Assembly (NCBI GenBank): GCA_004022145.1
Contig: RCNU01000008.1
Origin: Paecilomyces variotii
Lineage: Eukaryota
Reading direction: 5' to 3' (one strand)
DNA length: 64,000 bases
Made by a program: the position numbers and the translations under genes. The notes under the pieces were generated by a model, which had not been told where the DNA came from, ran no database searches, and saw only the letters and a program-made list of their open reading frames with translations. Below, in pieces: positions 10,597-34,120 of this stretch; positions within the stretch are counted from its first letter, which is position 1, and each line of letters begins with the position of its first letter.

Positions 10597-13027
10597 GACG
10601 GATTTTAGAGATAAATCCCTCCACGTAGCAAGATACCTCCGTTACACGATGTGTGTATCGTTACAAGTAATGAATATCATGTAATATCAGAGGTGTGAGA
10701 GAGATGATGTGGATTAGAAGTGAGTAGACGAGTGAAGACGGTCCACAGCTCTTCCCACCAAGAATCGAAAGAAAAGATGAAAAATGACTATTCCCCAAGA
10801 GCAGAAGACATATACAAGCCAAATATGATAACTCTTGAAGGATATTCAGACACGTCAACAGTAAGAGTAGACTTGTTGACAAGTGAGCTAGGTGGAGTGT
10901 GTATGCTGTTGTTGTTGTGTTTTGAATCTGATCTGGGTGGCAACCATGTGCTGGTCGAACACACGCTGGTCATTCTTTGTCTACATCACCTAAAGCGTCG
11001 AAGATCAGATGATATGAGTGTTCATAGAAGAAAGAAAAGTTGATACAGAATTGTAAGTAAGGTATGATAGAATGGATTATTATCAAAAGTGAATCGAATG
11101 GTTTCAGAGTAACTAGTCTCGGAGGGCAGAGTACCATATGCTGGTCCTTGAGAACCATCGTATGCTATTCTCCTAGTGCTCTCTCTCTCTTTTGTAGGAA
11201 GATGAGGGGTTTTTTAGTAAAAATTCACAGGACTTGCTGAATGATAAGTGAAAAATTCAAACTAGGGTAGGTGAATTCTTCGAGTAATCGACGCATCTTA
11301 TCACTCATGCATGTAACTTCGAAAGAAATTCACTCCAGAAGATATAGCCACCCGTAGACCCTCACTAGTTAACAGTGAATAAATACTATGATCTCGAACC
11401 ATGATATTAGTTATCAGTGGTTAAACCGTAAAGACGAGCTCCGTGTTAAGATGATAATAAAAGGTCTAGTTTCGAATAGCGGAGCATTTGGACATGGCCA
11501 ATTCATCTTCTGAGAAACCAAGATTTAAAATAGAAATAAGAAACATACTTCAGGATCCCTGGCTGACTTACCCATCGATGGAGCGTATGTAAGATTCATG
11601 GAGGGTTCTTTATGGAATTTGCTGCCTCTCTCTCGAAAATTCTCTCCGAGTTCGGTTCGGAACCTTGACCACGATGGCGAGGGTGGACTTCGTATACGAG
11701 ACGAAACGAAACGAAATCCCTCCCTCCCTCCCTAGATCTCCAATGTACAGTGGGGAATTGGCACTATGGTGAGAATAGAATGTGCTGCGCTGCAATTGCC
11801 ATTGAGGGAGAGATACCTCCATGAGTCAGTCTACGGCGAACTTTGAGAGCCTTGGAAGTGGGTTGGTTGGACCGGAAATAATAGACATGTGAATACTTAA
11901 CGCATGGCTCACACTACGTACTTAGAAAGGCTACATTTGCATTGATTCCACAAGGTCTACCCTGCAGCTTCCTGTCGTCTTGACTCTGGGGTGCGAAACT
12001 CTCAAAGGGCTAGAAGCAAAAGAATTCCAATTGCGAAAAGAAAAAAAAAAAAAAAAAAAAAAAAAGTCCACAGTAGAATATACCACCGTCATCATTAGTT
12101 ACTCGTTGTTTGTTATTAACAATCGACCCGGCAGGTAAATAACTAATTAATATTATTGTGTTGACAAAGGGAACGGTGAACAACAAACATCCATCCGGAA
12201 ACTGATGAGCAAAAAAATAGGCTTAACTACTTATTGTGAACCGATTAGAACCCTCTTTGCCGAAGTACTTAGAACCGAGCGAAAACAGGAAACGATGTCC
12301 GTATTATTCATTGTCGCCCTTGCCAGACTGGAAGCAAGGGGATCGTTCCCAGCCTGAAAGAAAAATCGTCCGCAATTATTCTGTTCGGAGAGGCCATGGC
12401 ACGATTCTGATCGGGATCTCGACAGTTAAATAACTAACTATCGTTGGTGATCTTCGGTTGGAGACCCGCTTTGTGTCCGCTAAGTAGGATCCCCTCTAAT
12501 TCTAGTCGTATGTGAATAATATCTTGCCAGTCAGTGTGATGAGGGGAGTTTGAGGATATCGGGCGGAGAGTTGCTTCTGCGAGTTCATGTCAGTTGAGGT
12601 TTGGTTTTGTCTCTGCAATCTGAGTATACTCTATATATACAATTTGTATGTACTATCGTTGACAAGTTGAAGCTTTTGTTTGACCTTTGGTCCGGAATTC
12701 CCGAATCTTCGCCGGGGCTCGGTGAAATATGAAGAAGTCGCCACTTTTTGGATTTGAAATCATAGTTATCAAAAGTTCTACAACTGACGGGGATAGGTTG
12801 AGCCACAGTAAGTAGAGCCACAGTAACTAAGTTAGAGTAGATGATGACAAACCCACGCATTTTCCAGTTATATTATAAATCTCTCTCTCCAATAATCAAT
12901 CGAATCCCCACACTATAAATAGGACCTGCTTTGTACCCCAACGTTGGTTATATTTAATATTATTATTATTATTATCTATTATTTATTTATTGTTCGTTGA
13001 TTTTTTTTATTTTTCTTTCTTTTCACA

Positions 13028-14094
13028 ATGGCCAGTCAGAGAATCGGCGTCTTTCCTGCCGCGGGTGGTATTGGTGGTAGCACTGTCAAGTACTTGCTCC
13101 CGCGGCGTCCGGCTAAAGATCTCGTCTTCATCGCTCGGTATCCCGACAAGTTAGAATATGCCTCTGCTGCGGGAGCAACTGTTCGCCAGGCCGATTATGA
13201 TGATGACAAGTCCCTAGAGCATGCTTTTGATGGAATCGACACTCTGTTCCTGATCTCGTATGCTTCAGTTGAAGTGGAGCACCGAGCTGAGGTACGTTCA
13301 GTTCAGTCTTAACTACTACCTAGGTTGTTACTTATAATAATATATATATATATATATGTTTCTTGCCAAGACTAACACGGAAACCAAAAACTTGATAGCG
13401 TCACCGAACTGCAATCGACTACGCTCTCCGTAGTGGTGTGAAATACATTTTCTATGGATCCCTGGGATTCGCTGGCAGTCCAGAAAGCAAAGAGTCAGTT
13501 GCTCATGTGATGCAGGCTCATTTGACTACCGAGAAGTATCTCGAAGAGTGCGCCCGCTCGCATCCCGGATTCGCCTACACCATTGTACGGGAGGGACTGT
13601 ACTCTGAATCGTATCCTCTTTATACCTCGTTCTTTGACCCCGCCGATCCGGTTGATGAGATCAAGATTGCCCACGACGGATCCGGCCCCGGGATTGCCTG
13701 GGTCAAGCGGGAAGAACTGGGAGAGGGAACGGCGGAGCTGTTGAATATCTTCGCTAAGAATCCAGAGGAGTTCAAGTTCCGGAATAAGACGGTTCTCCTT
13801 TCTGGTACCAAGGTGTTGAGTCTTCAGGAGACGGTGGATATTCTGGCTAAGATCGCGAAGAAGCCTGTGAAAATCGTTCAGGTGTCGGATGAAGAGTTCG
13901 CGCGCCAGCCCAAGAATTCGCCGAACTTCACGTATCATGGCGTTGACCTCTCTAAACCATGGGCAACGGCTTTTGAAGCTTTCCGCAGAGGCGAAGCGAG
14001 TAAAGCATCGCCGCTCCTACGTGAACTGCTCGGTCGCGAGCCGGAAGATTTCGAAACCACAATCTCGCGAGCCTACACAACCTCGCAAGCCTAG
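13028..14094 (+). CDS. NmrA-like / atypical SDR NAD(P)-binding oxidoreductase
   Basis: Rossmann motif 'IGVFPAAGGIGGS', 'VRQADYDD...AFDGIDTLFLIS', 'H...EKYL', 'TIVREGLYSE', C-terminal 'LLGREPEDF'. One intron 13292-13398 (GTACGT...GACTAAC...TAG). Confidence 0.85.
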
Positions 14095-14699
14095 TTTGCA
14101 TGGGCGTGGGAGGTTGATCAGTGTTTTTCTCAGCAACAGAAATTCCTCAGATCAAATATAACTTGTCATCAAACTTGCGAGCACGCTCGACTATTATTAC
14201 TGTATACTAGCAAGATGATGAAGGAAAAGAATCGAGTCTGAATTAGATGCGTAACGTCTCATAGATGTACACCAGGAAACATGATCAGAGGTACAAAAAA
14301 AAAACGAATAATGTCCTAATTGGCTACGGTGTAGAACCAGCAGACCGTGAGAAGAATGGAAAGAGAAGCAAAACCGCGAAGAGTCGAATTACAGGCCCTA
14401 CGCGCATAACTTTGTACAGTTCGCAACAGACGACCCCTATCCACGAACGACGGGGCCACCTCCGCGGGGGAATCAGATAAAAAAGCACAAAATGAACTGC
14501 CCTGAAGCTTGAGGGAATATACATTGATATCTTCCAAGGCACTCCTAAATGACAAGACCCTCCACTCCGCTTCTAAGTTGATTGCGGCGGTCCATCTTTC
14601 GACCAACACCAACAAGCCCAGCTACCAGTCCTGCGGCATCGCGCCGAAATGTGACCCTAGACATGAGCGCAAGGGGAATCGTATTCACAAGAAAGGAAT

Positions 14700-15423
14700 T
14701 TACGCGAAGAGGACGGCGGCCAGGGCGGCAACACCACCGAAGACGAAGGAGTTGCCGACGGTGCTGGCGGCACCGGTGAAAGCCGGGGGAGAGGGGGTGG
14801 CAGAGCCGGAACTGTGGATATATTGTTAGTTGATGGATTCTTCGTGAGATCAGTTTGAAGAATCGAGGAATGACTTACGGAGTGGGAGAGCCGGAGGGCT
14901 TTCCGGGGTAGCCAGTGCCAGCAGGGACGGCGGGGGTGGCACCAGGAGCCTTGGGGGCAGGGCCACCAGCAGCGCTGGAGGGAGCCAGAGTGACGGTCGA
15001 GTAGCTCACGCTGGGAACGCAGGTGGAGATGGTGATGACCGAGATGCTGGGGGCAGCAGCAGAGCTGGGGTACGGGGGCTGGGCGGCAGCGCTGCTGACG
15101 GGAGCGGGAGCGGAGGGAGCGGGACCGGAGGCCACGGGGCTCACCGAGGCGGGACCGCTGGGGGCAGCGCCGCTGGTAGCGGGAGCAGAGCCGCCGGCGG
15201 CAGAGGTGGTGATGGCGGGAGCGGGAGCCTCCGAGCTGCCCTCAGGGGCGACAGAGGAAACAGCCGGGGCAGCAGTGGCGCTGTGCTTGCGGGCCGGGCA
15301 GTTGGTGACGGTGGGAGCACACGAGGTGATGGTGACATCCTCGGTCTGGTAGACCGTCTCAGCGGCCTGGGGGAGGGCAGCGGCAAGGCCGGCCAGGAGA
15401 GCAACGGAGGCAGCGAAACGCAT
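14700..15423 (-). CDS. GPI-anchored Ser/Pro/Ala-rich cell wall protein
   Basis: Signal peptide MRFAASVALLAGLAAA, motif 'TEDVTITSCAPTVTNCP', low-complexity stalk. Intron 14878-14812. Exon 2 ends with GPI signal 'PAFTGAASTVGNSFVFGGVAALAAVLFA*'. Confidence 0.85.
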
Positions 15424-18250
15424 CTTGAATTCGTTGATAGAGGGGGTATTTCAGGAAATGAAATCCGTCAAGGCGTCGAAGCGAAAGAAGGGAGTGCGGG
15501 TTTGCAAGAGAGCGGTGGTAGTTGGTAAAAAAGAATGGACGTTGACCGAAGTCAGAAGCAGGACACTGCAAGCACGAAGAAGGGAGTCTTGGTGGGACTT
15601 GGAGTATGAGAAGAAGAAGAAAGAAAGAAAGAAAGGAACAGCCAGCCCGGGGGATGCTGGGGGCTCTTTGTATGAGCTGGGAGATTAACCTGGAGATCCT
15701 CACGGAGGCCCAAAAAGGGGGGGCGCTTGGGGAGTGGACCGGCCAGCAAACGCGTCCCTCGACTTGTTGTATTCTAACTTGGTTAAAGCCAGAGAGAAAC
15801 ACAAACACAGAAACACCACGGCCGAAGCGATCACTGGGTCTGAGAGCAGCGTGCCGTGCTGGGTTGGCAGACTAGCCATTGCCATAGACTAGATAGCCCA
15901 AGTGGAGGCCGGTGGTCCGCGGTGGCTGATCGTTGTCGTGCGGGTTTCCTTAGGGCCTCCTGATAATCACTGTCAACGGCGAGGACGGAGTATAATGATA
16001 CTAGTTACTAGTGACCTAGTTACTCCTGTTCCTGAGAGTCGACAATGCGAGACCACTCGACTTGATGGTATCTACTCTAGATATTCTGCTCTGCTCTGCC
16101 CTGTTCTATCTATCTATCTATCTACTGTAGACTACTAGATCCCAGCTGTCGAGAATTCCGGGGAAACCGGGCTGTTTATTCGTTCTGCCACTCGATCTGG
16201 CAGTGTTTCAGGAACCATCGCACTTGCCGCCCAGCACGGCTAGTCAGGGGGTTGTGTTCCCGCCTAGCGTCATCTTCACCGCCAATTACTGCTGGTCAGA
16301 TGGATCGGATAAGCAACTCGCCCCCTGAAGCGAAAACTGCACTGGCTGTGGTCGTGATACAAAGTCGCACTGGGCGTTGCAGCACGCTCTCTAGAGTTGC
16401 TCTAGAGTTGCTCTAGCGGCCAGCTCAGCAGCCATCCTGCTCCTTCATTGTCCCCTGTCCAAATGAACGCTCCGCCGCTCGGGGAATTGATTGGTCTCCC
16501 TCAGCTCGCTTGCTTTTTGATGACTTCGATGCTAGCGTCGTCTCTTTCTGCTCTCTCACTGCTCATCCGACAATCCCTTCTCCAAACGTGTACAACGGTA
16601 ATCCCGTAAGTGACAGTAATCATTAATGAGTAATCATATCGGGAATCTCCGTCTCTTTTTTTCTCTCTCTCTCTCAATCAGATACCATAGTTATCGCAAA
16701 GTCAAAACAAACTCTGCTGCTAGAGCATCTAGGGCAGCCCTTCTAAACAAGTCCCAGAATCCAGACTCCAGACCCATCACAGTCATGGATCCAGTAGCTA
16801 CTATTTCCGGAAATGAGAAGTCCGGACTCCTCGATATTAATCTAAATGCGGATGATGGAAAATACGGGGTAACGTTGGAAGGGAAAAACGGTAGATAGGT
16901 TTGGCCGCTGCAGAGTCCAGTCAAGCCGACTAAAGACGCCACAGCATGTCTCCTTCCGGAAGCACCTGCGAGATCTAGGGTCTGATGGATCATGGACCCC
17001 AGTAGTGCTACCCTATCGAGCGTGCTATTTTGCGAGCGGACGCTTCTTTTTTGGACACTCCAAGCTAGCCGCCTTTGCGGGCGGGAAGATCAGAATCAAA
17101 GGAACAGACTATCGACGTCTGGACTCGATCGCATACATATTATTATCACAGACAAGCATCAGACATGGGCGCCATAAAAGTATATCCTGCTCGACCAGGC
17201 GAGCCATTCTGTCCTGCCGTTACGCCACCACGAGCACCGTGTCTGCTGGCCAGCTCGGTTCTCAGGAACAGTCTGGGCGTACTTAGCCGCTGCAACATCA
17301 TACTCAATCCGACGGTCTTCAGATGCGAATGCCGACATTGAACGCCGAGAATCGAATCAAGAAAAGGCCAGGAGATTTCTCTCATCCACCCTTATTATTT
17401 GACACGCTATTCTATTATTATTTCCACCTGGTCTCGGTGAGATTCCGATCCCTGCCAAGCTACCGGTCTTTGCTGACAATATGCGATGATCTCGCACCAC
17501 AGGTTCGGAGACGTTCACATTTGCATCAGACTTGACTCGTCCCTATCCCCCTCTCGCCGTTCAACATCACTTCCATCGAGCACAACCTGACAGGAGTTCT
17601 TTCGAGAACTCGAGACACCTCCAACCTATCCCCTGGACTGCTTGATACGATGACATTATGGCATTATACACCACCGGGAGACAAAACGAAGCGAGGTCGG
17701 TCCAGACTGGAAACACGAGAAGCATCTCGATAATTCTGTCAATTGGCAAGGTCTGCAGAGCGCTACACAATACCAAGGGTTCAAGAAACGACCCTCAAGC
17801 TTGAGATTTGGACTGCTTCTAGTCCTAAGATATATCTTGTTTGATGGCCTCTCTTAGCCACAGGTACCTACTGTCCCAGCTACTAACCGCCAGGATAGAC
17901 TCTTTGCGTCCGATCGCCCAAAAAGGACTGCTGATATCGTAGGGTTTCAACATCAGTAACTACTACTACTACTAACTAACATACTCCAGTGAATTATCAG
18001 ATCATCAAACTTGTAGTTACTCCACAATATCCACAAAAAGACCTTTGACAAGATAATAATAACATCCTACGCAGATGTGATAATAACCCATAATATCTAT
18101 GACTTCATTTCTAACCGTGAGTCATCACGTGCAATAACTAACTATCCAACGCACAACTTCGAGAAAGAAAAAAAAAATCACCAAGACTCCATAATTTTCC
18201 CCTCCCGGATATAACTCCTCTTTGTCAACCCACAAAGCAAACGCCAGATA

Positions 18251-19171: not shown

Positions 19172-20206
19172 TTAGACGTGTCTGTAGGGTTCGTAGGCGG
19201 TGGTTCTCATGTTGTAGGCAGGGGCGGGAACATTGGCAGGATGTTCCTGGTTGGCGCCGTGGGCGTACGTGCTGCCAACCGGCTCGTAGGTGTAGGGGGC
19301 CTTCTCAGCACCGACGACGCCGCGGTTGCGTCTGTTGCCGCGGGGAGAGCTGCCCGAGCAGCAGCACGAGCTGAGCATCCAGAAGAGACTGGCTGCCAGA
19401 GAGAAGGCGACGGCGAGCCAGGTGGTGACATACATGTTCCTGCCCATGCTGCCGGTGATTCCATAGGACTTCAGCTCCTTGTTGAAGGCGTTCGTCAAAA
19501 CGACGTACATGGCGGTAGCGGTGACCGAGGCGGCGATGGTGAAGAGCAGCGACACGGTGGAAACCAGACTGGTGATGCAACTTCCCAATCGACTGCAGAT
19601 GGCAGTGAGGCCGACGACTAGTTCCACAACAGTAGCCGCGAAAGCGATGATGTAGGCGATAAACATCCACTTGGTCACCGCCTTGTACGTGTTGAGTTCC
19701 TTTTGCAGACTGTCGGGGAGGATGTCCTCGATGCCAGTGCCGTTCAGGTTCCAGACCTGCACCGGGTTGAACCAGAATCCCGCCTTGGCCTTGGAGCAGT
19801 TGGTGGTCTTGAACTCGTCGTTGGTAACGTCTCCGTCACAGTAACCAAACAGTCCAATGTCGTAGAAATCCTTCAGGTTCAGCTCCTTTTCTGCTTCGTT
19901 CAGCAGCGAGCTCAAGTTGCTGCTTGTGTCGGACGCGCCCAGGGCGCTCGATAACGTTGAACTGACATCCGAAGCAGTCGTTGTGAGATTTTGGAGATCC
20001 GCCTGGGAAGTATTAGTCCATGTTAAATCAACACCATCATCTTTGGGGTAATGACCGGGTCAACATACGCGGAAGAAATAGAGGTTATTGAGAGTGCTGG
20101 AGTTCTTATTGGTGCATCCCACACCAACGAGGATGAGACAGATTAACGATGCAATGGTCAAGAGATATGGTGTGAAGATGCACACGATTCTGCCTGCTTT
20201 TCCCAT
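19172..20206 (-). CDS. Sur7/PalI-family tetraspan membrane protein (Pun1-like)
   Basis: N-terminus 'MGKAGRIVCIFTPYLLTIASLICLILVGVGCTN', loop motif 'DFYDIGLFGYCDG...NCSKAKAGFWFNP', three further TM helices, Cys cluster 'SSCCCSG'. One intron ~20068-20003. Confidence 0.85.
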
Positions 20207-21302
20207 TGTGTAGATAGTTTTCAGAAATGGCAATGCACGGGCCGCAATGTCAGTAGTAGTAGTAGTAGTCTAGTGGAGTCTGGACTCTTCTGGCGATGTA
20301 TAGCGACTGTCTCTGACCGATGGAAACGAATGATCGATAGATGCAACCCGGGAGGACAGCTGGTATCAGGAGAGCGAAGGACAGATGAAGAGGTAATAAT
20401 AATAATCAGTGAGAGGAAGGAAGGAAGGGAGGAAGGGCGGAAGACGGCTAATTAAAAAAGATGAGGCCGGATGACCGTTTTCACAGCCAGGCATTGGCGG
20501 GACGTCAGCACTGGAGATGGATCGCCTGGCTCAGCCTCTCAGGTCTGCGCGCGTGGCCGCGATGACTCCGCTGCGCCACTGCCGTTTCTATTCTTATCTA
20601 GATAATATAAATATTGTGGTTGGTGCCTCGTGGCGGTGGTTGGCTCTCTCAGGCAACCAGTCCACATTGGACCAACCACCGTTGTCGCTGGCCGCGCGGC
20701 CCCACTGTCCACGTCTCGCGGGAAACACGAGGCTTGGCATTCGAGACCGATAGACACAGGATATACCGAAGATGGACACAAGATAGACACACAGATGCAC
20801 AGATACGGCAGTCCTGAACGGTTGACATGCAATTTAAACTTTTCTTAGTTGCGCACTGAAATTCGGGTATCTTCTGCCTCACAGCCCTAAGATGATCGTC
20901 ACTGCTTCGCAACTAGGGAACTTGTTTCGTTTTAGCTTTTTACTGCGAAAAATTCAATAATTGCTGCGCCGCATACCCTGACGTTTCTTGCGAATGTACT
21001 TGTTACAATTGAAGGAACCGCAGTTGTCCAAGGAGAGGACGTGCCGTTGGGTCCCGTCCACCCACAGACGAAACAGGAACAGATAAGATAACTATGATCT
21101 TCAACATCTATAGCTTAGGTATCTAGTGCAGCACTTTCGAGCACGAAACTATTAATTCACTAGTACAACACAAGTAGCTTTAACGGCCAAACCCACTCTT
21201 GCAAGCAGCTACTCTACACCATTAGATCCTAAAATACAGCTCCATTTCCATATCAATATTCAACGCAAATCTCTGATATCCGCTATACTGGCAGTCGGCC
21301 GG

Positions 21303-22429
21303 TCAAGGATCATGCTCATGGACAATCTCGCCCTCCGCCGGCGTGAACGGATGATTCTGCGGATCGCCCTCGATTCGACGCGCATAGGCCCACTCGAGAA
21401 CGGTGTCGAAATTACGACATCTATGAGGCGTGCTGAAGTCGGGATAAGGCCGTTGTTCGCGTCCCTTCACGTACTTGTACCCATAGATACCCGCGTCCGC
21501 ATTGCACATGAGCACCTGTCGGAGCATTTCCGTGCAGTGGTAAAGGTGGTTCTCCAGTTCAGCTCCTGAGTCACTGAACTCACTGCCCTGATTCCGGTAG
21601 TAAGGATAGTTGAACCATGCAGCCTTGCGGAGGAAGTTCTGTGGATGCGGATACTCCTGCCTTAGCCTCTGTTCCGAGAAGGGAAACCAGACGGGGATCA
21701 TCCATGGATAATAATACCAAGCCGAAAGAGGGAACTTACTACGCAGTGAAGTTGATGGTTCACCTCCACAGAGGCCATGTATTCACCGCTGCCTTTGTAG
21801 CCGGGAGGGATTCGTACATCTCCTTTTTCGAGGCCTGCTTTGAGAGCTTCGTGCTCTGGAAGAGAAAAGACGCCCACTAGTTCCGGTCAGCGACGTTCCA
21901 AGCCTCGATATGATAGGGGTATCTCATAATTCCATACTGCCGAGTGAAATATAGCTCCATGCTGCGTCGACTTCAGGCCCTGGTGGAGCGCGGTAGATAG
22001 ATTCGGCATGCAGAGAGCCGTTGAATTTGGTCGTCATGTAGGGATCTTTAATCTGCGCTAAGATGGGGCCTATCGTCCACACATTAGCTGGACTGCAGAA
22101 TGAACAGACTGGAGCTTGTAAGGAGAGGACAGCATACTGTAATAGCTACCATGCTTCAAGCAGAAGCGATCAACTTCTCGAAGAGACACCCACCAGAAAG
22201 TTGCAAACAGCATTGAGCTGACGATGAATAGGAGGAGGGACGTGAACAGCAATCCGTATATCCACTTGTTCAACGGTCGAGGCATATGCTTCATCGCCAG
22301 AGCAATCGATCCATGGAATTTGTCGGTCTTTTCATCGTGTAACAGCATGTCCGTATCTTCCATCTTGCGCGAGAAGGAGTTTTCTCCCGCTTCTTCCTCC
22401 GAGGAACTGACTGGACTATAGAGCGACAT
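21303..22429 (-). CDS. DUF3328 / UstYa-family oxidase (RiPP tailoring enzyme), copy A
   Basis: N-terminal TM anchor (WIYGLLFTSLLLFIVSSMLF), 'KFNGSL...IYRAPPGPEVDAAW', motif 1 'VEVNHQLHC', motif 2 'NHLYHCTEMLRQVLMCNAD', C-terminal 'PDFSTPHRCRNFD'. Four exons with GT-AG introns near 22137-22070, 21937-21878 and ~21740-21636. Confidence 0.9.
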
Positions 22430-23490
22430 CTCTGATCTCCCTTGCAAAATAACAGCGACATATGGACAAGGTGAAAAGAAGCAATCGATAATATGCTATT
22501 TCACTATTTCACTTGTGTCTAGGAGGAAAGACTGAGCTAGACTCAGGTTCAGACTCAGCCTTTGGTCTCGAACAGGATCTAGCCCGTGCTGGTTCAGAAG
22601 TACGATTGACAAAGAAGGCATCCAATAGCCTGACAGAGATTCTAATCGTTCCATACGCGCGCGGCCACTGGTAGTCGACTACTTGGGGAACAAAGATTCT
22701 TTGTTCGAAGAAGCTCAGATACCTCAGATCAGTCTAAAGCATATATTCGCCATCATGTTCTTGATCCGTCCAGAGACAGCATCATGCAGCTGAGGAAAGG
22801 ATGAGACAGGTCAGAACGCACGGTATAACAGATAAATAAAGCAACCACCCCTTCCCATGGCATTATTGGCTTACTGTTTCTTGTTATTATAGATTGTCAC
22901 CTGGTTTGAACTTATTAGGTCGCGTGATCAGTCTTGAAAGGCGTGAAAGCCAACACGCCCGATATTGGAAAAGCACAAGTACGACCCGTCAGTATAGCAT
23001 AAGCTGCACAAAGAGAAGAAACTTCAGGTTGAGACAGCTAGAACCTTCTTCTCCGTTAACGGCGTATTCGAGAGTAAGGTTTCAATATTGGCTGACGCCG
23101 TGTGGCTTCTGATTAGGCTTCGAGACATCGGTAACCTATGGAGCTCTTCCCTGCGATTGACCGGGCAATCAAAGCCAGGAATAAAGAAGGTTGACTGCAT
23201 GAAAGAGATTTACCTTTGCATGATCGGATAACTGGCACAGAACAGATCCTTACACAGTGCGCGAGGATGACATAGCGTCGAGACTATCACTCCTCTCCAT
23301 GAAAAAGAAGGTGGACACAAACTTTTACGAGAATTTTGGAATTGCTTCTCATAGCAGTATAAAACAGCCCAGTATTCCCATCCAAGTAATCTTCTCTCAC
23401 TTTTATCTATCAGAGCCAGATCCCTCTTTTCGACTATCCACAACCGACCTGTTTCCATCTCCAAGAACGTCTCTCTTTCAAATCTTCAAA

Positions 23491-23961
23491 ATGATCGCAA
23501 AGCTGTTTACTCTCGCAGCCGTCATTGCTCTGGCTACCGCTGCGCCAGTCTCCACCTGTAAGACAAATCTTGACCGTCAATTGACATTGCTAATGGTAGA
23601 TAAACTAGCATCCGAGATCGCCGCTAAGCGTGATCCCGCTAATGACCTGATCGAATACTACATCGATGGACCTTCTGAGAACGATAAAAAGCGCGATGTG
23701 AAAATGAGACGCGATCCCGAAAACGATCTCGTTGTCTTCTACATCCCCGAGGAATCCAAGACCACGAAGCGTGATTCTGAGAATGAACTCGTGAAATTCT
23801 ACGTCGGAAAGGAAGATGTCGACAAGAGGAGCAACAATGGCTTGCCGGTCTACTCTTCCGTCGACGCGGATGGTCTGAGGCGGCGCGACTCCGAGAATGA
23901 ACTTGTCAAGTTCTACGTTGGAGCGGAATCTACTGAGAAGAGGAACAATGATGCTGTCTAG
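23491..23961 (+). CDS. Secreted Kex2-processed repeat protein (KEP), candidate RiPP precursor peptide
   Basis: Signal peptide MIAKLFTLAAVIALATA-AP, probable 51-nt intron 23558-23608. Then units delimited by KR/RR: DPANDLIEYYIDGPSENDKKR, DPENDLVVFYIPEESKTTKR, DSENELVKFYVGKEDVDKR, SNNGLPVYSSVDADGLRRR, DSENELVKFYVGAESTEKR. Lies between two DUF3328 genes. Confidence 0.88.
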   Translation: MIAKLFTLAAVIALATAAPVSTCKTNLDRQLTLLMVDKLASEIAAKRDPANDLIEYYIDGPSENDKKRDVKMRRDPENDLVVFYIPEESKTTKRDSENELVKFYVGKEDVDKRSNNGLPVYSSVDADGLRRRDSENELVKFYVGAESTEKRNNDAV

Positions 23962-24555
23962 GTGTGTAGTCTACGGACTAGGCACTAGGCTTCTGCGGAG
24001 CTTCCTAGAGGTGTTGAGACTTGGAGGGAAAGTAGTTCAGGCTTCAGACATTCCTTTAGTGTTTCGTTTCTGTCGTCTTTGAATCTTTTCGCTTTGTGCA
24101 TCCTATGCACGATGCAACTCCGACGTTCCTTAGTTTGAATTGTAGTTTTAGTTATCTTGGTAGCTACGTTCGAAGTGGCTTCATTCTGTAATACATCTGT
24201 TTACCTCCGAATAAGGCCATGAGAATCTGTAACACAGTTATCATAAAGTGTAGTAGTAGGGCTACATGTAAGTCCAGTCCTACTCAAGTCGTATAGCGCG
24301 CAGGGATACAGGTAGTATCAAGAAGTCCGAAAAATACCGCCAAGCGAGTCTAACTGTAAGTATGTGCATAGTAAAGATTAGAACAAAGAAAACTAAATCC
24401 AGCGTATCATGGCCGGGCCAGGAGCAGCTTAAAGTATCTCCTGTGACCATTCAGATAGATGAATCTCTCTCTCTCCATCGATGTTCCATCCTATCTGCAT
24501 CTCAACTAGAGAACCCCAAGAGAAAGAGAGGAAAAACACGAGTCAAGCCTCAATA

Positions 24556-25380
24556 ATGGCCAAACACGAATCCTCAAATCCCAATACCTGGCGAATTCCC
24601 TTCTTGATCACAGCAACCCTACTCCTCGTTCTCGTCTCAGCAGAAATCTACTTCCGAATCATCCCAGACAACATTGAAAACGTCGGAGCGAGCCTCCTAA
24701 CCCCCAAACCATCCCCTTCACATCAAACCCCAACAGAAGACGACACAACAATCGGTTCCGTTTTCCGAAAAATCGACATTCTCGAAGATATGGGTCCCGC
24801 AGGAGACGAGGCGTGGGATTCACTCCTCTTACCGAAAAGAGGGGGCTATATATTCGCACGACCGGAGGATCCTGCTTCGAACGAAGCAGAGCCGTGGGGT
24901 ATTACTATGTTTCATAGTTTGCATTGTCTGGGTATGCTACGAAGTGCGATTCAGGAACAGCAGGGTTCGAATAGTTCAAATGCGCATGTGCATAATCATA
25001 ATCATGCGAGGAGGGATGGAGTCGAAGATGTTAACCATACGGTCCATTGTCTATCTTATCTTGCTCAGGTAGGTTTCCCGCTCATTTAGGTAGTTTTCTG
25101 ATATGGATAATTATGAATATGGGACATGTTGGCTAATTAGGTACTCCTGGAACAGGCACTGACGTGCTGTGGGGATGGCACTCTTGAGAAAGCGATTCAT
25201 CTGGATGAGCCAGATAGACGCTTTGCCATTAATGGACAGGGCGTGTGGCATCAGTGTCGAGATACGAGTTTGTTATGGGATATTACTATGAAATCGACGC
25301 GTGAGCCGGTTGATAGATGGGTTTCGAGGAGAGGTGAGACGGTCTATAGTGTTTGGGGTAAGGGGGGTCGGACGAACTAG
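24556..25380 (+). CDS. DUF3328 / UstYa-family oxidase (RiPP tailoring enzyme), copy B
   Basis: N-terminal TM (IPFLITATLLLVLVSAEIYF), 'GDEAWDSLLLPKRGGYI', motif 1 'ITMFHSLHCLGMLR', motif 2 'NHTVHCLSYLAQ|ALTCCGDGTLE', C-terminal 'GQGVWHQCRD'. Intron 25069-25155 (GTAGGT...GCTAAT...CAG). Confidence 0.9.
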
Positions 25381-25927
25381 GGCAGAAGTGTTGGAAGGGT
25401 TGGAGTAGAGAAGGTTGTTTGCTTCTTTGGCTTTCTCCTTTCTCTTGTTGTGTAGGTAAATATTGTTTTGGATTATCGGTAATATTCTATCTTATCATTT
25501 CGGACAGTTTGATCCATCGTCTTGTTCCCCGCATGCGTGACCCCACATAAGTAAGTAGTGTCAAGAGTGACATAATTTATCTTCAATGAACGTCTGTTAT
25601 AACTCAGTAAATCTATGACATGGGCATCGAGACACCAGTTTTATCTTGCTTCTATCTTAATCTAAAACATTCTCAGCTCTTCCAACTTACCAATTGACAA
25701 TTCCGATATTGTATATCGTATTTCATACCGAGGTCGTAACGCTGGATGTTGGAAACCCCTGTGGTAAACCTCGGGAAATCCAGACATCTATCGGGGAGTA
25801 AATGTGGGGTCTATCTCAGAGCTCTACAGAGGCAAGATAATAAATGAGAGATCCGCAAAGAAGAAAAAGTAATATATCTAGAGAAACAGTTTTCAAGTAT
25901 CCTGTCCCGGTAACCGCAGATTTCAAA

Positions 25928-26976
25928 ATGGCCTTAGTAGAGCTCGATCCCTCCTTACTAGCCACGCTCAAGGACAAAGTCGTCGTCCTTACGGGCGGGG
26001 CGACGGGCATAGGACGTTCTGCTGTAGAGCAGTTCCATGGTGAGTAGGAGGAGGAAACTGAATTCAAGAGAGAAAGAAAATGAAATTGACAATTACTTTC
26101 ATCCCAGCAAGCGGCGCAAAAGTCGTCTTCGGAGACGTCTCCGACAAACCTGCTCAAGAACTGATCTCAAAACTTGGCCCATCTGTTCGCTACATGCACT
26201 GCGACACAACACGCTATGCGGATCAACTCGCCCTCTTCGCGACAGCCGAGAAGCTATTCGGTCGTGTCGATATCGTGGTCGCGAATGCCGGAGTCGCACA
26301 GCACAAGGACATTTTCGCTCCAGACCAAGACATCAATGAGGAGCCGTCTCTGCGGGAAATCGATGTGAATCTCAAAGGCGTGCTTTTCACAGCAAGGATC
26401 GGTCAACATTATCTCCGCAAAGTAGGAGGTGGAGATATGATTCTTGTCAGTAGTATTGCTGGCTTTAAGGAAACAGGTGGTCTTACCCCGTATATGGCGA
26501 GCAAGCATGGGGTTATTGGGATCTTGCGGGGGTTAAGACTCACGGCTCTTCCGGAGAATATTAGGATTAATGCCATTTGTCCGTGGATGACGAGTGAGTT
26601 TTATGATGACATCCTTGTTTAATTGGTGATTATAGTGCTTATGCATGTGTCAGAAACGCGGCTAGTAGAGGGCATCGAGGACGGCTGGTATAAACTAGGC
26701 CTTCCTACAAATGAACCCGCCGACGTTGCGAGGGCGATTGTCACTTGTGCGACGGCAAACAGAGAAACTGGAGGTAAGACGCACAGAGGAGCGGTATTGC
26801 CGTTTGCGGGAAATATCCTTTACGTTGCTGGCGGAAAGGCCTATGAGATTGAGGCCAAGCTGCAGGAACTGGAGCCGGTATGGCTCGGAAAAGAGAACAG
26901 TGAGGTTCTTGCAAAAGGACAAGCATATTTGGCGTCAGAGGGAACCAGCTGGGATGCTTCGAAATCAAAGTTGTAG
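25928..26976 (+). CDS. Classical short-chain dehydrogenase/reductase (15-hydroxyprostaglandin dehydrogenase-like)
   Basis: 'VVVLTGGATGIG', 'VVANAG', catalytic Ser in 'VSSIAG' and 'YMASK'. Introns ~26040-26107 and ~26593-26653. Confidence 0.88.
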
Positions 26977-27089: not shown

Positions 27090-29495
27090 CTAACTAAATA
27101 AGCTCTCCACATTTTTAAACTCGGCCATCCCACCGGTTGCCGCCAGAGGGGCCTTCAACTCTCCCTTTTTAGTGAAAAGAATCAACGTTCCTCCAACACC
27201 CATATCGCCGTAGATGATCTTGACAGAAGACTGCTTCTTGTTTGGAATCATTGTAATCGGAACTGACTTCTTTGAGACTCCATTATAGTAGGTGAAGGTG
27301 CTGCTTTCAACGTCGAAGCTTGGATAGGCCTCAACGGTAAGATGAGGCGCCCAGTTCTTCGTCCATTTATTGTTCGCTTGGACGATGTCACCGCGAGGTA
27401 CAATGGACCCAGCCTTGATGTACACAGGACTATATTCAAGTTCCAGCTGTACCTGGGCAGTTGAACCTCCTTTATACACGTCCGTCTTGTTGTGATACTC
27501 GAGATAGTCCGCCCCTTTGGGGAAATAGACTGTTCGGCTGCCGCCTTCGTTCACGATCGGGGCTACTAGAAATTCTTCCCCAAAGAAATATTCGTCTGAG
27601 ATAGTATATACTTTGTTATCCTCTGGAGACTCGAGGAACAAAGCCCGCATAATAGGCACACCATTCTGCGTCGCTTGGTAGGTATAGCTCTTGATGAATG
27701 GAATCAGGTCATGATGAAGATTTGCCGTCTGCTTCAGAATCAACACAAGCCTTTCCGTATATGGTGCGTACCATGGAGTATGGCCTGTGCCGATCATGAT
27801 CAAAAACTCCGGGGTGAAGGCAGAATGGTGCATCCATCTTGCCCAGAGCTCTTCGGTGGGTTCGTCTCCCTCACGGACATAGCCGCCCGTGTCGCTTGTC
27901 CAGTGGGAGAAACCAATAAGACCGGCCCTGATGCCATCTGCAACGGTGTATCTCAAACCAGTGAAGTTAGAGTGGGCATCTCCGTCCCAAACAGTGGTGA
28001 CAGCACGGTCACGGTCATAGGCACTTCGGGCAAAATCGTGGAAGCCATCCTCACCCCATTTCTCGACCATGGTTTCATAACAGAGCCTTCTGAAGAGTAC
28101 ATCCTGGATGTTTTGTTCAAAGACTGAAAATCCTGTTACCACTAGTTTCGAGCTACATATAGGTAAGACATACCTGGCATTTCACCTTCTTCGCCGCGGT
28201 CGATTTTGTACCCCTTGACTCCGATTGATGGGAAATAGCTCAACCTCTCCTTGAAATATTCATAGGCAGCAGGTATCGACAAGTTCAAAGCCGGACCGAG
28301 AAACTGTTCCGGATCAATTCCAGGAAAGAGCCAGCCATTCTCCACTGACGCATTGTAGAGCTCGGTGTCGAGGAATGCCCGGTTCGCAACCCATACCTAA
28401 TAGTATCCAAACATCAATAAACCTGCCTGGCACCTAACCGGGGAATTAATCATACCTGGAAGTCAAATCCGTAGTCGGTAAGATTCTGAATGAACTGTTC
28501 TGGGGTGGGATAATACTTTGGGTCGAAGTCGAAATTCCCAAAGGAAGAGTTTCCCGTTCCATATGGACCTAGTGAGGAGTTAGAACCTGTATCACAACCA
28601 TATAAATGTGGCAACATACGATCCGCAAATAAACCAGAAGCATGAATCTGGTGATAGTACAGATGATCCACAACATCATAATAGTTCTCCTGCGCATTAC
28701 GGACATAGCCATGGAAATCCTCCTCAAAATCATCCGAGTAGAAATTGGGCCCATACGCTGAGTCCGGAGGCATTATACTTCTAGCAGATAGTCCAGTATA
28801 TTCCTCAATTATGGCCTTGTAATCATTTTTCTTTTCCGGCGTTATGATGTAGTACGTCAAAGAGCTCGTGTTGAAGACAAATTCAGCTGTTCCCGGTGCA
28901 GTAAACTCGTACGAGCTCATGGCGGTAGAATCAGCGTAAACAGCATATCCGGCAGTACTGATGAAAAATGGAGCCCTAGCATTCGACCAGTTGATTCCTT
29001 CGGAGTTTCTGAATCCTTTTAATTCGAAGGAAACGTTTGAGTTGACGATGGTGTCGCTCAATGGATACTCCCAGACACCGTAGAAGAGGTCAGTGGCATC
29101 GTTGATGAATTTTGCGCCGACAAATTGCTTTGAGGAATCGATCTTGATTTGCATGACTGTTGGGGAAATGCAATTCCAAGAAATTGAACCGCCATCGTGC
29201 ATGATGTGGCCGTTGCCCGTAATGCTAATGGCTGATACGGTCTCATTTTGCGATCCTACACTCGTGTAAGCGAAGCCCGTCTGTCTCAGTGGTCCCTGTA
29301 ATTATGCTAAAATGCTATAAAGAGACATTGCTAAGTACCAGTGAGAACCGTGTTCTGAACTGTCCCCTTTCCATTCCATGATCCCGTCTCAAATGTCAAT
29401 GGCCACTTTTGCGATACTTTCACCGGGCATCTACTAGCATACGTAGTAGTGCCGGTCATGGCAAGGATAGAGACTCCCAGCGCAAGCCAGTGCAT
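27090..29495 (-). CDS. Secreted glycoside hydrolase family 31 (alpha-glucosidase/alpha-xylosidase-like)
   Basis: Signal peptide MHWLALGVSILAMTG (ATG 29495), nucleophile region 'GYKIDRGEE', 'VWDGD', acid/base region 'HWTSDTGGY', 'EELWARW', 'GVPIMRALFLE', 'YFFGEEFLVAPIV'. Several short introns. Confidence 0.85.
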
Positions 29496-30141: not shown

Positions 30142-33100
30142 CTAAGGAAACTGAATATCCAACATCTCCATCCCAACTCCACAGACGAGAAGCTTCAAGC
30201 CTTTTTCGGAATCGGAGTCTGCTGCCGGAGCGCGGATGATATCCATAGACGATATATCCGCAACCGGGGAATACCGATTTACTTTCTCAACGATATCAAT
30301 GACGTCTGAACCTTTCTTTTCAAGGTCTATCGTAATTGACCATATTTTGATCCGGTGATCGTTGCCTGAAGTTGCAACAAGGAAGTTTCTTTGCGAACCG
30401 GTAGCATCTAGCATTTCCTTCGGGTAAGGAAGCACTTTGATTGTGGTTACAGAAGCTGCATGAGCATCGGGTATTGATACTGTTGTCACTTCAGCATCTT
30501 TGGCAACGTCGATGGTTGGCAGCGCGAGTAAGGAAATCGACAGTGCGTTATCATCTCCACCAGCAATAATAATTTTCATCGAGTCTGATAGATCCACGTA
30601 TTCCATAGACTTGATGCTGTTCTGATGGATCTGATATCGTGTATATGAGGGCAGATCGGCGAGCTTTACAGCATCTGACAGAGCCGACGGCCGTGGAATA
30701 ACTTTTGAGGACTCAACAAAGAAAAGAGGCTCCAGAATGTGACGCAGGTCCCAGACTGAAAAGTGCCCATCGGTGGCACAAGTTATCAGGTTGATTGAAG
30801 AATGGCACATTAAAAACTGTGCCCGAGTAAGACAATTGGTCATATATGTACCCTTTGCTAGCAGCGTAAACTGGGAGCCCGCGTCTGAGGACGTATAGTA
30901 TAGGATCTAGAAAGTTAGCGCAGTCATAAATAGGAGGCTGTAGGCATATTTACCTTCACTGTCGAATTAGAGCAGACCAGACAGAATAAAAAGCGATCCT
31001 CCCCCTTTTCACTTGTTATGTCTAAGACGTCAAAGCTGGTTATTCGGAGATCAGACTGAGGGTCATCTTTCGGACAGGACGCCTCTTGGATGATCGCAAG
31101 ACCGAACACCGGAATAGAGCGTGCTCTCCATACAAATAGCTCTTCTTGGCCCGCGCTTGTGAATAAGAATCTTCCATCTGACGACCACGTCACTTGCTGG
31201 AGTCCAGTATTATGTGGGTTAAGCACTCGCAAGCATTCGAAAGCTCCTCGTGGGCTATTCGCTGCTGAAGGCGCTGATTTGAATATGCGCACTGTTGTAT
31301 CCTCGCCGCCTGTGGCAAAAAGGGCCTCCGAACTCTTTGTCGTCTCCATACACTTTATCTCTCGACCATGACTGCCCACACGAAGCGTTCTTTGCAAGGG
31401 GGTTGTCATTCGGACAGTGTATAAATTCTTGGCCTGGTTCCACAAGAATGTCCCACACCCAGGTAATGCCTGGATATTGCAGTATGCCCAGCTTCTGTGC
31501 ACGCCTCCACAGCCAATGGTGAGCAGCTCAGATCGAGTTGATTCGTTCCAAATAACAAAATCTTTACTGCGGAAGCCATATAACATCAGATCACCAGTTT
31601 CTTTTTCAAAATAGGCGCCCTCAATAGTCTGTTTGAGGGAAGGTGAAGAACGATGGATTGTTTTGAGATGAACGGGACCTCCTGGTTCAGCTGCTGATCT
31701 CAACTCATGAAGACAGTAGAAGCTATCTCGGCCACAGGTTATGAAATAATCCACATGCGTGCCGTCCACATCAACGCGTGATAGGACATGTGTCTGAGAA
31801 GTGACCACGTCGAAGCCATGAACACGACGGATGCATATCAGAGGTTCCAAAGGTGCATCTGAGTGAACCGACATGTCATATAGCGCTAGGCCTCCAAGTA
31901 GCGACCCAAAGGTAATGTAACGGCGACCACAAAGATACAAAGAACTGGTTACCTTGAAAGTAGAAGGCAATGCCAGTTCAAAAGTGTCTACGTCCGGGCT
32001 CGAACCATCCAGTGACTTTATGACGATCAGATCAGCATAGTCGGAAGTAGCACGCGTTGCCAGGATGGAGAAAGAATCAGCCGGACTATCGTTAGAGGCC
32101 CCTTCTGTCTGATGATCAAGAACATAGAGGTCCATTGGCCGCCTGCCAGTCTCAGCAACGACTCTGATGGTCTTTGAATGGTGATCATATAGACGCATAA
32201 GACCGTTTGCGTTTCCTATCACCGCTAACCCTCGACGTGGCAGACTGGCGATGAAAGCGAAGGACGCGAGATCGGGTTCAGTGGATATTTCCTCCCAAGA
32301 GATCCGGTCATCTTGCTCGCACAGAGGGTTAGGTCCAGGGTGAAAGTGACCTATACGAATTTGTCCCTGGACAGTGACTGCAATGAAACAATCGTCGGTG
32401 ACAAAGTCAAACGCTTTGATTCGGTCATCAGTCCTCACTAGTGTTTTCTCATCCTTCAGAGAAGCTTTAGCAGAAAGGACTTTGTTGTTGATAGGACCCA
32501 ACTCTATGGCTTTCAGGCCACCATCAGCACCGCCTGTGTAGATTACGGTGCTGTTGGGTGCCCTGAGAATGTCTAAAGCCCATATGTGCTTTCCGGTATG
32601 ATGATACAGGGTTGACAAATTTTCCAAGTGGAATTTGGGCTCCGACGAGAGATGATTGTCCCATGTAAGATTCCATAATTGGCAGGCTGCATCCTCGCCC
32701 CTAGAAACGAGGCTCACCGTAGGTTCAGATGACGTATGTAGGAAATGGATACCCCATATTCGTGCGGCGTGACCGAAGCATTCCGCGATGCAGTTTTCCG
32801 AGCTAAGAGAAGACGTCTCAGCATGACTACCGAATCCTGTCGTTCGAAGTTCGAACCCATCCGTAGAATATGCAGAAGGATCGTGGCGTGACGCTTTGGA
32901 ACAGTCACTGATGTCCCAGATCCGGACCGTTCTGTCGTCACTGCAGCTTGCGAGTAACCGTCCTGGTTTACCATCACGTACGACAGCGATTTCAGGAGAT
33001 ATGTCGACGCCAAATATGGATCCCTGATGTCCAGTAAAAAAATGGTGAATAGACGTACAGTTATCTGTGAGAAAACTTCCATCTTCATCAAGAAAATAAG

Positions 33101-33732
33101 ACCACACGACGATTTCACCAAAGACAGTCCCAGCAGCTATGAGGACATGTGTAGCAGAAAGTGCCAGGATGTCTGCGGAATATAGCATTGTTTTGACGCC
33201 TGTTGCTAGCTGTTGCAAATGAATCCCTGTCTCAGGGTTGATATCAAGAAGCAGCAACGCATTATGAGCCGTGACCAAATAAGCTCTATTCCGATTATCG
33301 TCCTCATGAGAAGCGCACGCATCGAGGATCCAGTCCGGAGCTGCATACTCGCGGCTTGCTACTGACAAGCATAGATGTTGGAACCCAACATCAGTTTTCA
33401 GATAGCTCAATCTGAGGACTCTCACTGAATGTCCACCCCACGTTAGGATCTGCACTTCATTCTGCCCACTGTTCTGCGATTTCTGTTCAGTAATTAGAAA
33501 GCCATGAACATTGTTCCTTTTGAAGGCCCTAGTTTCGGCTAGAACCACTCCAGTAGCCTCATTAATAATGCGGGTATAAGGACCCTGGCCATAGATTACT
33601 ACATCGTACCCCTGCAGACTGAAGACTCTTATTCCAGATATTGGAAGGCAGGCATCGATGTGCTGGTTTTTGAGTCAGTGCCACATTTAAATACAGGCAA
33701 TGGTGCACACTGACCTCAAGAGAGAGAGACAT
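30142..33732 (-). CDS. WDR6: WD40-repeat protein, WDR6/Trm734(Rtt10)-like tRNA 2'-O-methyltransferase cofactor
   Basis: Characteristic WD segments 'AAGTVFGEIVVW', 'GHQGSIFGV...LASCSDDRTVRIW', 'GHAARIW', 'CGGVHRSW', 'HGREIK', 'GGDDNAL', 'AHAASVT'. Short exon 1 MSLSLE (ATG 33732) and a late intron ~30953-30908. Confidence 0.8.
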
Positions 33733-34120
33733 TGGGTACGAGACCCGCACCTACAGTCGTAGGTAAATATTGAAACCTCTGATGAGGTACTTCGATACTT
33801 GATCCCAATAATACTGCCTAGAGGCAGTTCTATTCTCCCACCTAGATTTTTGAATTATTCGATAGCATAAAAATGATCGTGCAATTGGATTACATAATCT
33901 CTCAAAATCTCCAAGTCGCACTTACCCATAAGCGGTTATATGAAGCACGTGATGTCGTGTCCCTCGTGTCAGATAAGTGGCGATGACGATAGTGGGAGCT
34001 ATCGGCCATATTGCCTCTGCAGTACCACAGTCCTCTTCCATGAATCTCTGAAGGCTTTTCTCTGCTGTGTGCGATGAGTACTTCGTGCGCCACTGCTTAT
34101 GAACGCGTCTACCCGACGCT

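Follow-up and report, generated by a model that had tools for sequence, protein, structure and literature searches.

What would a fungal locus make in which a small gene for a repeat-bearing peptide precursor is enclosed by two genes of the DUF3328 (UstYa) family? The question is raised by positions 21303-25380 of a 64,000-nucleotide (nt) stretch of fungal DNA, the window, where a left UstYa/DUF3328 gene on the minus strand, a precursor open reading frame (ORF) on the plus strand and a right UstYa/DUF3328 gene on the plus strand form a locus of three genes, with the two oxidase genes directly flanking the precursor. A previous interpretation made from the letters of this DNA (the sequence-only reading) had proposed here a cluster for ribosomally made peptides that are modified after translation (RiPPs) of the dikaritin type, arranged as DUF3328 <- KEP -> DUF3328, where KEP stands for Kex2-processed repeat protein, and ORFs, splice models and Pfam searches place every part of this layout where it had been put. 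KEP genes flanked by DUF3328 genes are the recognized signature of ustiloxin-type (dikaritin) RiPPs (PMC7329392, PMC12048977, and PMC6514808), as that proposal had also stated. By analogy with these systems, we consider it probable that this is a minimal, compact ustiloxin-type (dikaritin, "ust-RiPS") RiPP locus making modified small cyclic peptides, the product itself being a prediction. The window DNA is, judging from the proteins that it encodes, fungal and Paecilomyces variotii-like, since the left oxidase is identical over its whole length to a P. variotii protein (P0007) and the right one is nearly identical to another (P0001).

The precursor gene

The middle ORF shows both features by which KEPs are defined (PMC7329392), namely, an N-terminal signal peptide, seen here by hydropathy, and tandem repeats separated by dibasic Kex2 sites. 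Its N terminus is hydrophobic (9-residue hydropathy of 2.3 to 2.6 over residues 4 to 10), with a lysine at position 4 and A-T-A at positions 15 to 17, and on hydropathy it appears signal-peptide-like, in keeping with the signal peptide described before. Five tyrosine-containing peptides follow, each ending in KR, KKR, or RRR. The count of five repeats given by the sequence-only reading stands. A common motif, D-[PS]-[AE]-N-[DE]-L-[IV]-x-[FY]-Y-[IV]-[DPG], is found in just four of these peptides, and the remaining one, at residues 114 to 132, is degenerate. The precursor contains eight KR/RR sites, where shuffled sequences have 1.7 on average and 5 at most, and an internal 11-mer that is repeated with 11/11 residues identical, against a shuffle maximum of 7. 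As none of 300 shuffles reached either value, the precursor is more than a chance ORF.

The assumed start of the gene agrees with its surroundings. A TATAAAA element at 23358-23364, 133 nt upstream of the start, is followed by a C/T-rich stretch, there is no ATG between this element and position 23491, and the start codon at 23491 is, in this sequence context, well placed. The frame is open for a further 89 codons upstream (23224-23490) and contains another ATG at 23299, a stretch included in the database relative P0005 described below. A longer ORF from 23299 is unlikely to be translated, because the TATA box lies downstream of that ATG. In the pro-region, a candidate intron is marked by the donor GTAAGA, the branch-like CTAAT, and the acceptor AG, and there is a 42-nt alternative to it, which ends at 23599. 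Removing the 51-nt version would leave a protein of 139 amino acids (aa) and take away its only cysteine, while the repeats are untouched by either variant. In Pfam, no family was found for the precursor, and there was no match to MF_alpha at E values up to 0.1.

Selection on the repeats and relatives of the precursor

The repeats at residues 95 and 133 code for the same residues over their first 12 codons, with six synonymous and no nonsynonymous changes, while the next seven codons contain four nonsynonymous differences. Because all changes in the 12-codon segment are synonymous, the repeat peptide is under selection, and it is the 12-residue N-terminal segment and the dibasic site that are kept by purifying selection and not the C-terminal spacer. 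Of the internal evidence for a real coding sequence under constraint, this is the strongest. The DNA copies of the coding repeats are just 75% (between the two of the FYVG type) and 71% identical, and for this reason they were missed by Tandem Repeats Finder.

A word-indexed search of 5.8 billion proteins, limited to lengths of 85 to 273 aa, yielded 64 candidates for scoring, none of which reached an E value of 0.01, and no eukaryotic gene model for the precursor was found in the protein sets. A phmmer search (E up to 0.001) against 1.84 billion cluster representatives gave two matches, P0005 and P0006. We rejected P0006 (4,541 aa; E of 3.8e-4) as a relative, as it is an E/K-rich, animal-like protein without a comparable motif and its match is compositional. 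P0005, with 288 aa and 91% identity, represents this ORF in a close relative. It is called without splicing and extends upstream to the position where the window has a GTG, for which reason it looks like a bacterial-style ORF call and not like a curated gene model. It contains six motif repeats (one YYID, two FYIP, and three FYVG) versus four in the window precursor, three short D-V-x-x-[KR]-R spacers versus one, and a 2-residue insertion in the degenerate repeat; the reading frame is kept despite the changed repeat number. Variation in repeat number with a kept frame is typical of such precursors. Among the 10 motif copies of both sequences, D1, N4, L6, and Y10 are invariant, and every copy has I or V at positions 7 and 11. 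No other KEP was found to be homologous to the precursor in the phmmer search, P0005 being its sole relative there. The highest score in an Atlas feature search was 0.86; as 0.9 is the level that counts as more than a lead, the search offers leads only.

The two oxidase genes

The models of both oxidase genes were derived from the sequence and then compared with database proteins. The left gene has exons at 22429-22138, 22069-21938, 21876-21740, and 21638-21303 (including the stop codon), separated by introns of 68, 61, and 101 nt, all of them GT...AG, and its spliced product is identical at 298 of 298 positions to P0007, "hypothetical protein DTO280E4_2836 [Paecilomyces variotii]." Its relatives at the level of orthologs include a Rasamsonia byssochlamydoides protein with 63% identity and one of Talaromyces stipitatus with 58%. 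The right gene consists of exons 24556-25068 and 25156-25380 (including the stop codon) around an intron of 87 nt, and its product of 245 aa has the same residue as P0001, a hypothetical protein of P. variotii, in 236 of the 247 columns of their alignment, with exon 2 identical throughout. Three other homologs of the right oxidase (P0002, P0003, and P0004) continue with unrelated residues straight after the conserved "...LAQ," which is the intron site in both the window and P0001. Their ends look like mispredictions by intron read-through, and the position of the intron seems to be conserved.

Both genes are intact and code for both HxxHC motifs, as had been claimed, and the search against PF11807 (UstYa), named beforehand as the check, placed both in the family: against a curated cut-off of 25 bits, the last exon of the left gene alone scored 88.2 bits (E of 9.7e-25), and exon 1 of the right gene scored 50.9 bits (E of 2.5e-13). 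The left motifs are HQLHC at residue 182 and HLYHC at 218, with other cysteines at 90, 232, and 261, and the right ones are HSLHC at 120 and HTVHC at 161, with other cysteines at 175, 176, and 205. The two proteins share the spacing HxxHC, nine residues, Cys, 28 to 29 residues, Cys. Each has one strongly hydrophobic N-terminal stretch with the catalytic-domain region after it, which suggests the topology; the predicted membrane helix lies at about residues 56 to 84 on the left and 11 to 36 on the right (19-residue hydropathy windows starting at 56 to 66 and at 11 to 18, respectively, exceed 1.6). Together, PF11807, one predicted membrane helix, and the HxxHC(x)nHxxHC arrangement show both flanking proteins to be members of the DUF3328 family. 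In the six-frame ORFs of at least 30 aa in the window there are four HxxHC strings in total, all in these two oxidases, and a hidden Markov model made from seven homologs matches just these two genes (next best E of 0.73). At 23% identity (E of 3e-8) the two oxidases are, by this comparison, old paralogs, as described for UstYa/UstYb. The right oxidase also has a His/Asn-rich loop, H-V-H-N-H-N-H, between the motifs just ahead of the second HxxHC (about 24979-25010), where its length differs from that of P0001 by two residues, and this loop might bind metal.

What such enzymes do is best described for CctR, which is a membrane-anchored homodimer with a lumenal domain, located in Golgi, endosome, and vacuole membranes, whose monomers are joined by disulfides (PMC12435403). 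Its HxxHC(x)nHxxHC forms a binuclear copper site that needs O2 and electrons, and the fold defined by CctR is a four-helix bundle that has each HxxHC on a helix and the four histidines in one plane; ApnU and AprY, like CctR, form dimers that depend on copper and O2 (PMC12435403). A sequence search of the PDB found no structure of the family and no relevant match to either oxidase of the window (two chance rows with an E of 0.9 for the left one and none for the right one). We predicted a complex with ESMFold2 from residues 50 to 298 of P0007 and residues 8 to 246 of P0001, the latter standing in for the right protein of the window. The pair scored 0.71 (runs of 0.71, 0.69, and 0.73), whereas the best of three controls scored 0.00, with a contact agreement between runs of at least 83% and a partner predicted local distance difference test score (pLDDT) of at least 65. 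Of 78 solved complexes, 51 attain the mark used for this score, as do 2 of 108 mismatched pairs; for eukaryotes, it is attained by 39 of 65 solved pairs without a like older complex and 2 of 126 unrelated pairs. The contacts with the least error in the model are between cysteines of the two chains, namely, C261 (left) and C176 (right), and C232 (left) and C206 (right). The model supports, but does not prove, binding of the two oxidases to each other.

Predicted pathway

From these parts we can predict a short pathway. The precursor would enter the endoplasmic reticulum, and Kex2 in the Golgi would cut after each KR/RR, giving peptides of 19 to 21 residues. The two oxidases, presumably membrane-anchored, lumen-facing binuclear-copper enzymes and possibly acting as a disulfide-linked pair, would then, with O2 and an electron donor, oxidize the [FY]-Y-[IV] segment by activating a C-H bond there. 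The most probable chemistry would be the joining of the invariant tyrosine to a neighboring beta-carbon by an aryl-alkyl ether, which would close a small macrocycle. The acidic stretch D-x-x-N-[DE]-L in front of the aromatic pair, being conserved, may be a recognition sequence. General peptidases would trim the flanks, and the products would leave through the secretory route, an exit that would explain why no dedicated transporter was found. Three types of product would be expected, from the YYID, FYIP, and FYVG segments, with linked atoms that cannot be read from the sequence.

The survey of Umemura makes such a pathway plausible. For 1,758 of 7,878 KEPs (22%), a DUF3328 gene is found no more than 15 genes away (on average, 1.7 such genes at a distance of 3.09 genes), the number of DUF3328 genes peaks at the position adjoining the KEP, and 31.8% of all DUF3328 genes have a KEP in this range (PMC7329392). 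Tyrosine is present in 65.6% of the repeats of DUF3328-linked KEPs versus 38.2% otherwise (PMC7329392).

Several points weigh against the cyclic-peptide reading. DUF3328 enzymes also hydroxylate, halogenate, isomerize, and desaturate and occur in nonribosomal peptide synthetase (NRPS) and polyketide clusters (PMC12435403 and PMC12048977), so cyclization is not guaranteed. The Pfam scan of the window covered all 177 stop-to-stop ORFs of at least 90 aa, plus ORFs of at least 55 aa at 10.5-30.2 kb, and found in them no tyrosinase (PF00264), which is needed for ring closure in ustiloxin and phomopsin. In the YxIx-like tetrad of the repeats, position 1 is Phe in three of four, and therefore a Tyr1-Ile3 link of the ustiloxin type cannot be general. 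AlphaFold2 monomer models of the oxidases, built from 4-sequence alignments, were too poor for use, with mean pLDDT values of 41.1 and 40.4; at this low confidence, they put both motifs of each protein in helices, H171-195 and H212-231 on the left and H112-135 and H159-176 on the right. The complex model, with P0001 as its right chain, does not separate a heterodimer from the homodimers of the family. Finally, phmmer found no relatives of the precursor beyond its own 50%-identity cluster, so that its conservation is, as far as found, confined to the P. variotii lineage.

Alternative explanations

If the oxidases modified the Kex2 fragments without closing a ring, by hydroxylation, desaturation, halogenation, or isomerization, the products would be linear modified peptides. 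Members of the family do carry out hydroxylation (CctR), halogenation (ApnU), isomerization, and other reactions (PMC12435403), the scanned ORFs lack a tyrosinase, and two paralogs that are 23% identical may perform different reactions. We nevertheless regard this explanation as unlikely, as DUF3328 proteins are needed for cyclization in ustiloxin, phomopsin, asperipin-2a, and epichloecyclin (PMC7329392, PMC6514808, and PMC10540207) and an invariant tyrosine beside a beta-branched residue fits the ether-forming cases. It is quite unlikely that the precursor gives ordinary linear peptides that are secreted in the manner of pheromones or signals, next to DUF3328 genes that are there by coincidence and act on another substrate. 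The alpha-mating-factor cluster came second in the Atlas feature search (0.85, below 0.9 and thus a lead only), and 78% of KEPs have no DUF3328 neighbor, many of them being thought to be linear (PMC7329392). Here, however, DUF3328 genes stand directly on both sides of the precursor, there is no NRPS or polyketide synthase (PKS) in the scanned ORFs to supply another substrate, and all pheromone-type KEPs but three are without DUF3328 neighbors (PMC7329392). We rejected a pheromone precursor in the strict sense, given the DUF3328 genes on both sides and the lack of an MF_alpha or MF_alpha_N domain match, MF_alpha having been searched up to an E of 0.1 as mentioned above.

The middle ORF could also be nonfunctional, a chance ORF or a decaying relic, in which case the locus would make nothing. 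This would agree with the lack of a eukaryotic gene model in the protein sets and with the bacterial-style appearance of its only relative, P0005. Small repeat precursors are, however, often missed by gene callers, and antiSMASH fails on them (PMC12048977), and a relic is hard to reconcile with dibasic sites and repeat identity beyond all 300 shuffles, with six synonymous and no nonsynonymous changes across the 12-codon segment, with the frame kept in P0005 through a change in repeat number, and with two intact oxidase genes, so that we hold it to be highly improbable.

The reading as a cyclic-peptide locus can be taken further, to a bolder proposal that we find unlikely: the two DUF3328 paralogs would be a disulfide-linked heterodimeric binuclear-copper enzyme that cross-links the invariant tyrosine in [FY]-Y-[IV] without a tyrosinase, and the locus would represent a new dikaritin subclass making three small cyclophane peptides.

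Features of the locus and neighboring genes

The positions of the genes and of the parts of the precursor are listed in Table 1. The Pfam-matched ORFs around the locus are largely housekeeping genes. The scanned ORFs contain no methyltransferase (including SET-domain methyltransferases), cytochrome P450, flavin-dependent monooxygenase (FMO), pyridoxal phosphate (PLP) enzyme, or dedicated subtilisin, and no major facilitator superfamily, ATP-binding cassette (ABC) transporter, or peptidase family above the cut-off, the sole ABC_tran row being a subthreshold P-loop match inside the dynamin-like GTPase. The absence of an adjacent tyrosinase, methyltransferase, transporter, or peptidase, as noted in the sequence-only reading, was thus borne out at the level of Pfam. 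Two reductase genes that this reading did not mention lie near the locus, a short-chain dehydrogenase/reductase (SDR) gene that adjoins the right oxidase gene and is a possible accessory gene of the locus, and an NmrA-like gene farther to the left.

TABLE 1 Features of the locus and its surroundings (window coordinates)
Feature	Position	Strand	Basis or remark
Left UstYa/DUF3328 gene, 4 exons, 298 aa	21303-22429	-	PF11807; spliced identity to P0007
Divergent intergenic region, left oxidase/precursor	22430-23490	.	Read from sequence
Precursor gene (KEP), 156 codons plus stop if unspliced	23491-23961	+	ORF, dibasic sites, repeats
Signal-peptide-like residues 1-17	23491-23541	+	Hydropathy
Pro-region, ends in KR	23542-23631	+	
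Candidate in-frame intron in pro-region, 51 nt	23558-23608	+	Read from sequence
Repeat 1, YYID type, residue 48	23632-23694	+	
Spacer DVKMRR, 6 residues	23695-23712	+	
Repeat 2, FYIP type, residue 75	23713-23772	+	
Repeat 3, FYVG type, residue 95	23773-23829	+	
Degenerate repeat, residues 114-132	23830-23886	+	
Repeat 5, FYVG type, residue 133	23887-23943	+	
Tail, 5 residues	23944-23958	+	Stop codon at 23959-23961
Right UstYa/DUF3328 gene, 2 exons, 245 aa	24556-25380	+	PF11807; alignment with P0001
SDR, about 3 exons	~25844-26976	+	PF00106, E of 4.3e-32; TGGATGIG motif in first ORF piece
NmrA-like reductase	13001-14091	+	Pfam; 7 kb left of locus
Dynamin-like GTPase	8349-10508		Pfam
SUR7/PalI	19175-20269		Pfam
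GH31 glycosidase	27093-29301		Pfam
WD40 protein	30145-33674		Pfam
XPG/Rad2 nuclease	34103-37570		Pfam
Pil1	~39067-40620		Pfam
PhyH dioxygenase, bZIP factor, fungal-specific transcription factor	Farther from locus		Pfam

No tRNA genes were found in the window, and motifs common to both intergenic regions, sought as shared k-mers, were not above the level of shuffles. A scan for sigma-70 promoters and terminators gave three and two sites, at shuffle level, but this is a bacterial model and uninformative for a fungus. A region at about 14300-15900 is G+C rich, with a content of 0.566 for 14001-16000; its GC and AT skew is strong, and it contains long overlapping ORFs on both strands (up to 226 aa), none of them with a Pfam match. 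At 54305-54984, on the plus strand, matches to carboxylesterase (PF00135) extend over two adjacent ORFs in different frames, pointing to a multiexon or broken gene.

Significance

Paecilomyces variotii is a widespread, heat-resistant mold that spoils food and feed and causes occasional human infections; methods to transform it exist (PMC6300479). If the locus is active, this species would make ribosomal modified peptides hitherto unreported. Ustiloxins and phomopsins are antimitotic mycotoxins, and with such toxin relatives the product would be of interest both for food safety and as a scaffold. Having just three genes and neither a tyrosinase nor tailoring enzymes, the locus also offers a small model for how a pair of UstY-type copper oxidases acts by itself and for the heterodimer question; if the heterodimer proposal were true, it would also account for the requirement for two UstY proteins in ustiloxin-type pathways. 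The locus illustrates, too, how genome annotations still lack the precursor genes of clusters of this kind.

Comparison with known systems

The sequence-only reading had called the system minimal and possibly undescribed. As to the latter, the six repeat strings of 6 to 7 residues occur in no main text of the searchable literature of about 8.4 million papers (supplementary tables, MIBiG, and subscription journals lie outside it), the sole comention of Paecilomyces with DUF3328 concerns Metarhizium, and among the matches listed, there was nothing on such a locus for "Paecilomyces variotii" with "RiPP" (by title and start of abstract) or on Paecilomyces for "dikaritin" since 2021 (by title). The accessible part of the P. 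variotii genome paper contains no discussion of RiPPs that we could find. As a kind, however, the locus is not new: minimal clusters have precedents in the four-gene clusters of asperipin-2a and epichloecyclin, and because loci combining a KEP with DUF3328 are common (the 1,758 of 7,878 KEPs mentioned above), this is one more member of a well-populated kind. In the same survey, 2,560 KEPs were classed as "stand-alone" types (PMC7329392). We conclude that it is apparently an unreported example of a common kind and not a new kind.

Where the locus stands depends on the definition of dikaritins that is applied. It agrees with that of Montalban-Lopez 2021, as a DUF3328 protein with two HXXHC motifs adjoins a repeat precursor (PMC12048977). 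From the five-part definition of Ding et al., it has the multiple DUF3328 proteins and the leader-bearing repeat precursor and lacks the tyrosinase, the methyltransferase, and the transporter/peptidase parts, and asperipin-2a likewise departs from this definition in part (PMC12048977). The claim that the cores differ from known ones holds against the published sequences, the core-like segments YYID, FYIP, and FYVG being unlike the cores of ustiloxin, phomopsin, asperipin-2a, and victorin in the accessible text. For the Y-x-I-x core (type G-10 of Umemura, with Tyr1 and Ile3), one of the four motif repeats fits (YYID) and the others (FYIP, FYVG, and FYVG) do not. We therefore rejected the reading of the locus as an ortholog of the ustiloxin or phomopsin cluster, with a single fitting repeat and no KEP homology found.

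(i) Oxidases. The two proteins resemble CctR, ApnU, and AprY in their predicted N-terminal tail, single membrane helix, and helical domain with HxxHC(x)nHxxHC (PMC12435403) and in the two further conserved cysteines after the second motif, which are paired across chains in the complex model. These cross-chain pairs are similar to the intermonomer disulfides reported for CctR (PMC12435403). The known enzymes are reported as homodimers, whereas here two 23%-identical paralogs were modeled together, and their copper binding and activity are predictions.

(ii) Ustiloxin. The ustiloxin system (ustA and ustYa/ustYb) of Aspergillus flavus and Ustilaginoidea virens also has a signal-peptide KEP with KR-separated repeats and two divergent DUF3328 paralogs nearby. 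UstA is thought to be cut to 13- to 14-mers before cyclization by UstQ, UstYa, and UstYb, with the flanks trimmed by unknown proteases (PMC6514808), so that both systems would have a core inside a longer Kex2 fragment in need of trimming (PMC6514808 and PMC7329392), and the YYID repeat fits Y-x-I-x. The differences are the lack here of a tyrosinase (UstQ), methyltransferase, P450, FMO, and PLP enzyme in the scanned ORFs, Phe in place of the cross-linking Tyr in three of four repeats, Val in place of Ile in two, and 4 to 6 repeats versus 16 in the ustiloxin precursor.

(iii) Phomopsin and victorin. These clusters, too, combine a KEP with several DUF3328 proteins, the phomopsin core starts with YVIP, which FYIP resembles, and in victorin a Phe side chain can join the ring (PMC9233826 and PMC7329392). 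They are, however, large, with tyrosinase, methyltransferase, peptidases, and, in phomopsin, five DUF3328 genes, and no such accessory genes were found here in the scanned ORFs.

(iv) Epichloecyclin. The gigA, gigB, gigC, and kexB cluster is a minimal set of four genes with a KEP and DUF3328, in which DUF3328 is required for the cyclic products (PMC10540207). Its SET-domain methyltransferase and dedicated subtilisin have no counterparts in the scanned ORFs, and its core is INFKIPYT.

(v) Asperipin-2a. The four-gene cluster of asperipin-2a (aprA, aprY, aprT, and aprR) is, like the locus described here, very small and free of tyrosinase, and its aromatic-rich core also starts with F-Y (FYYTGY versus FYVG and FYIP). 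AprY alone forms both tyrosine ether rings (PMC6514808). Reductases are near in both cases, aprR being described as an isoflavone reductase (PMC6514808), with the SDR gene adjacent and the NmrA-like gene 7 kb away here, where their membership in the locus is possible. The present locus differs in having two DUF3328 genes versus one, no transporter, a shorter core, and a single invariant tyrosine. By analogy with all of these systems, the locus would work like the known dikaritin systems but is a type of its own.

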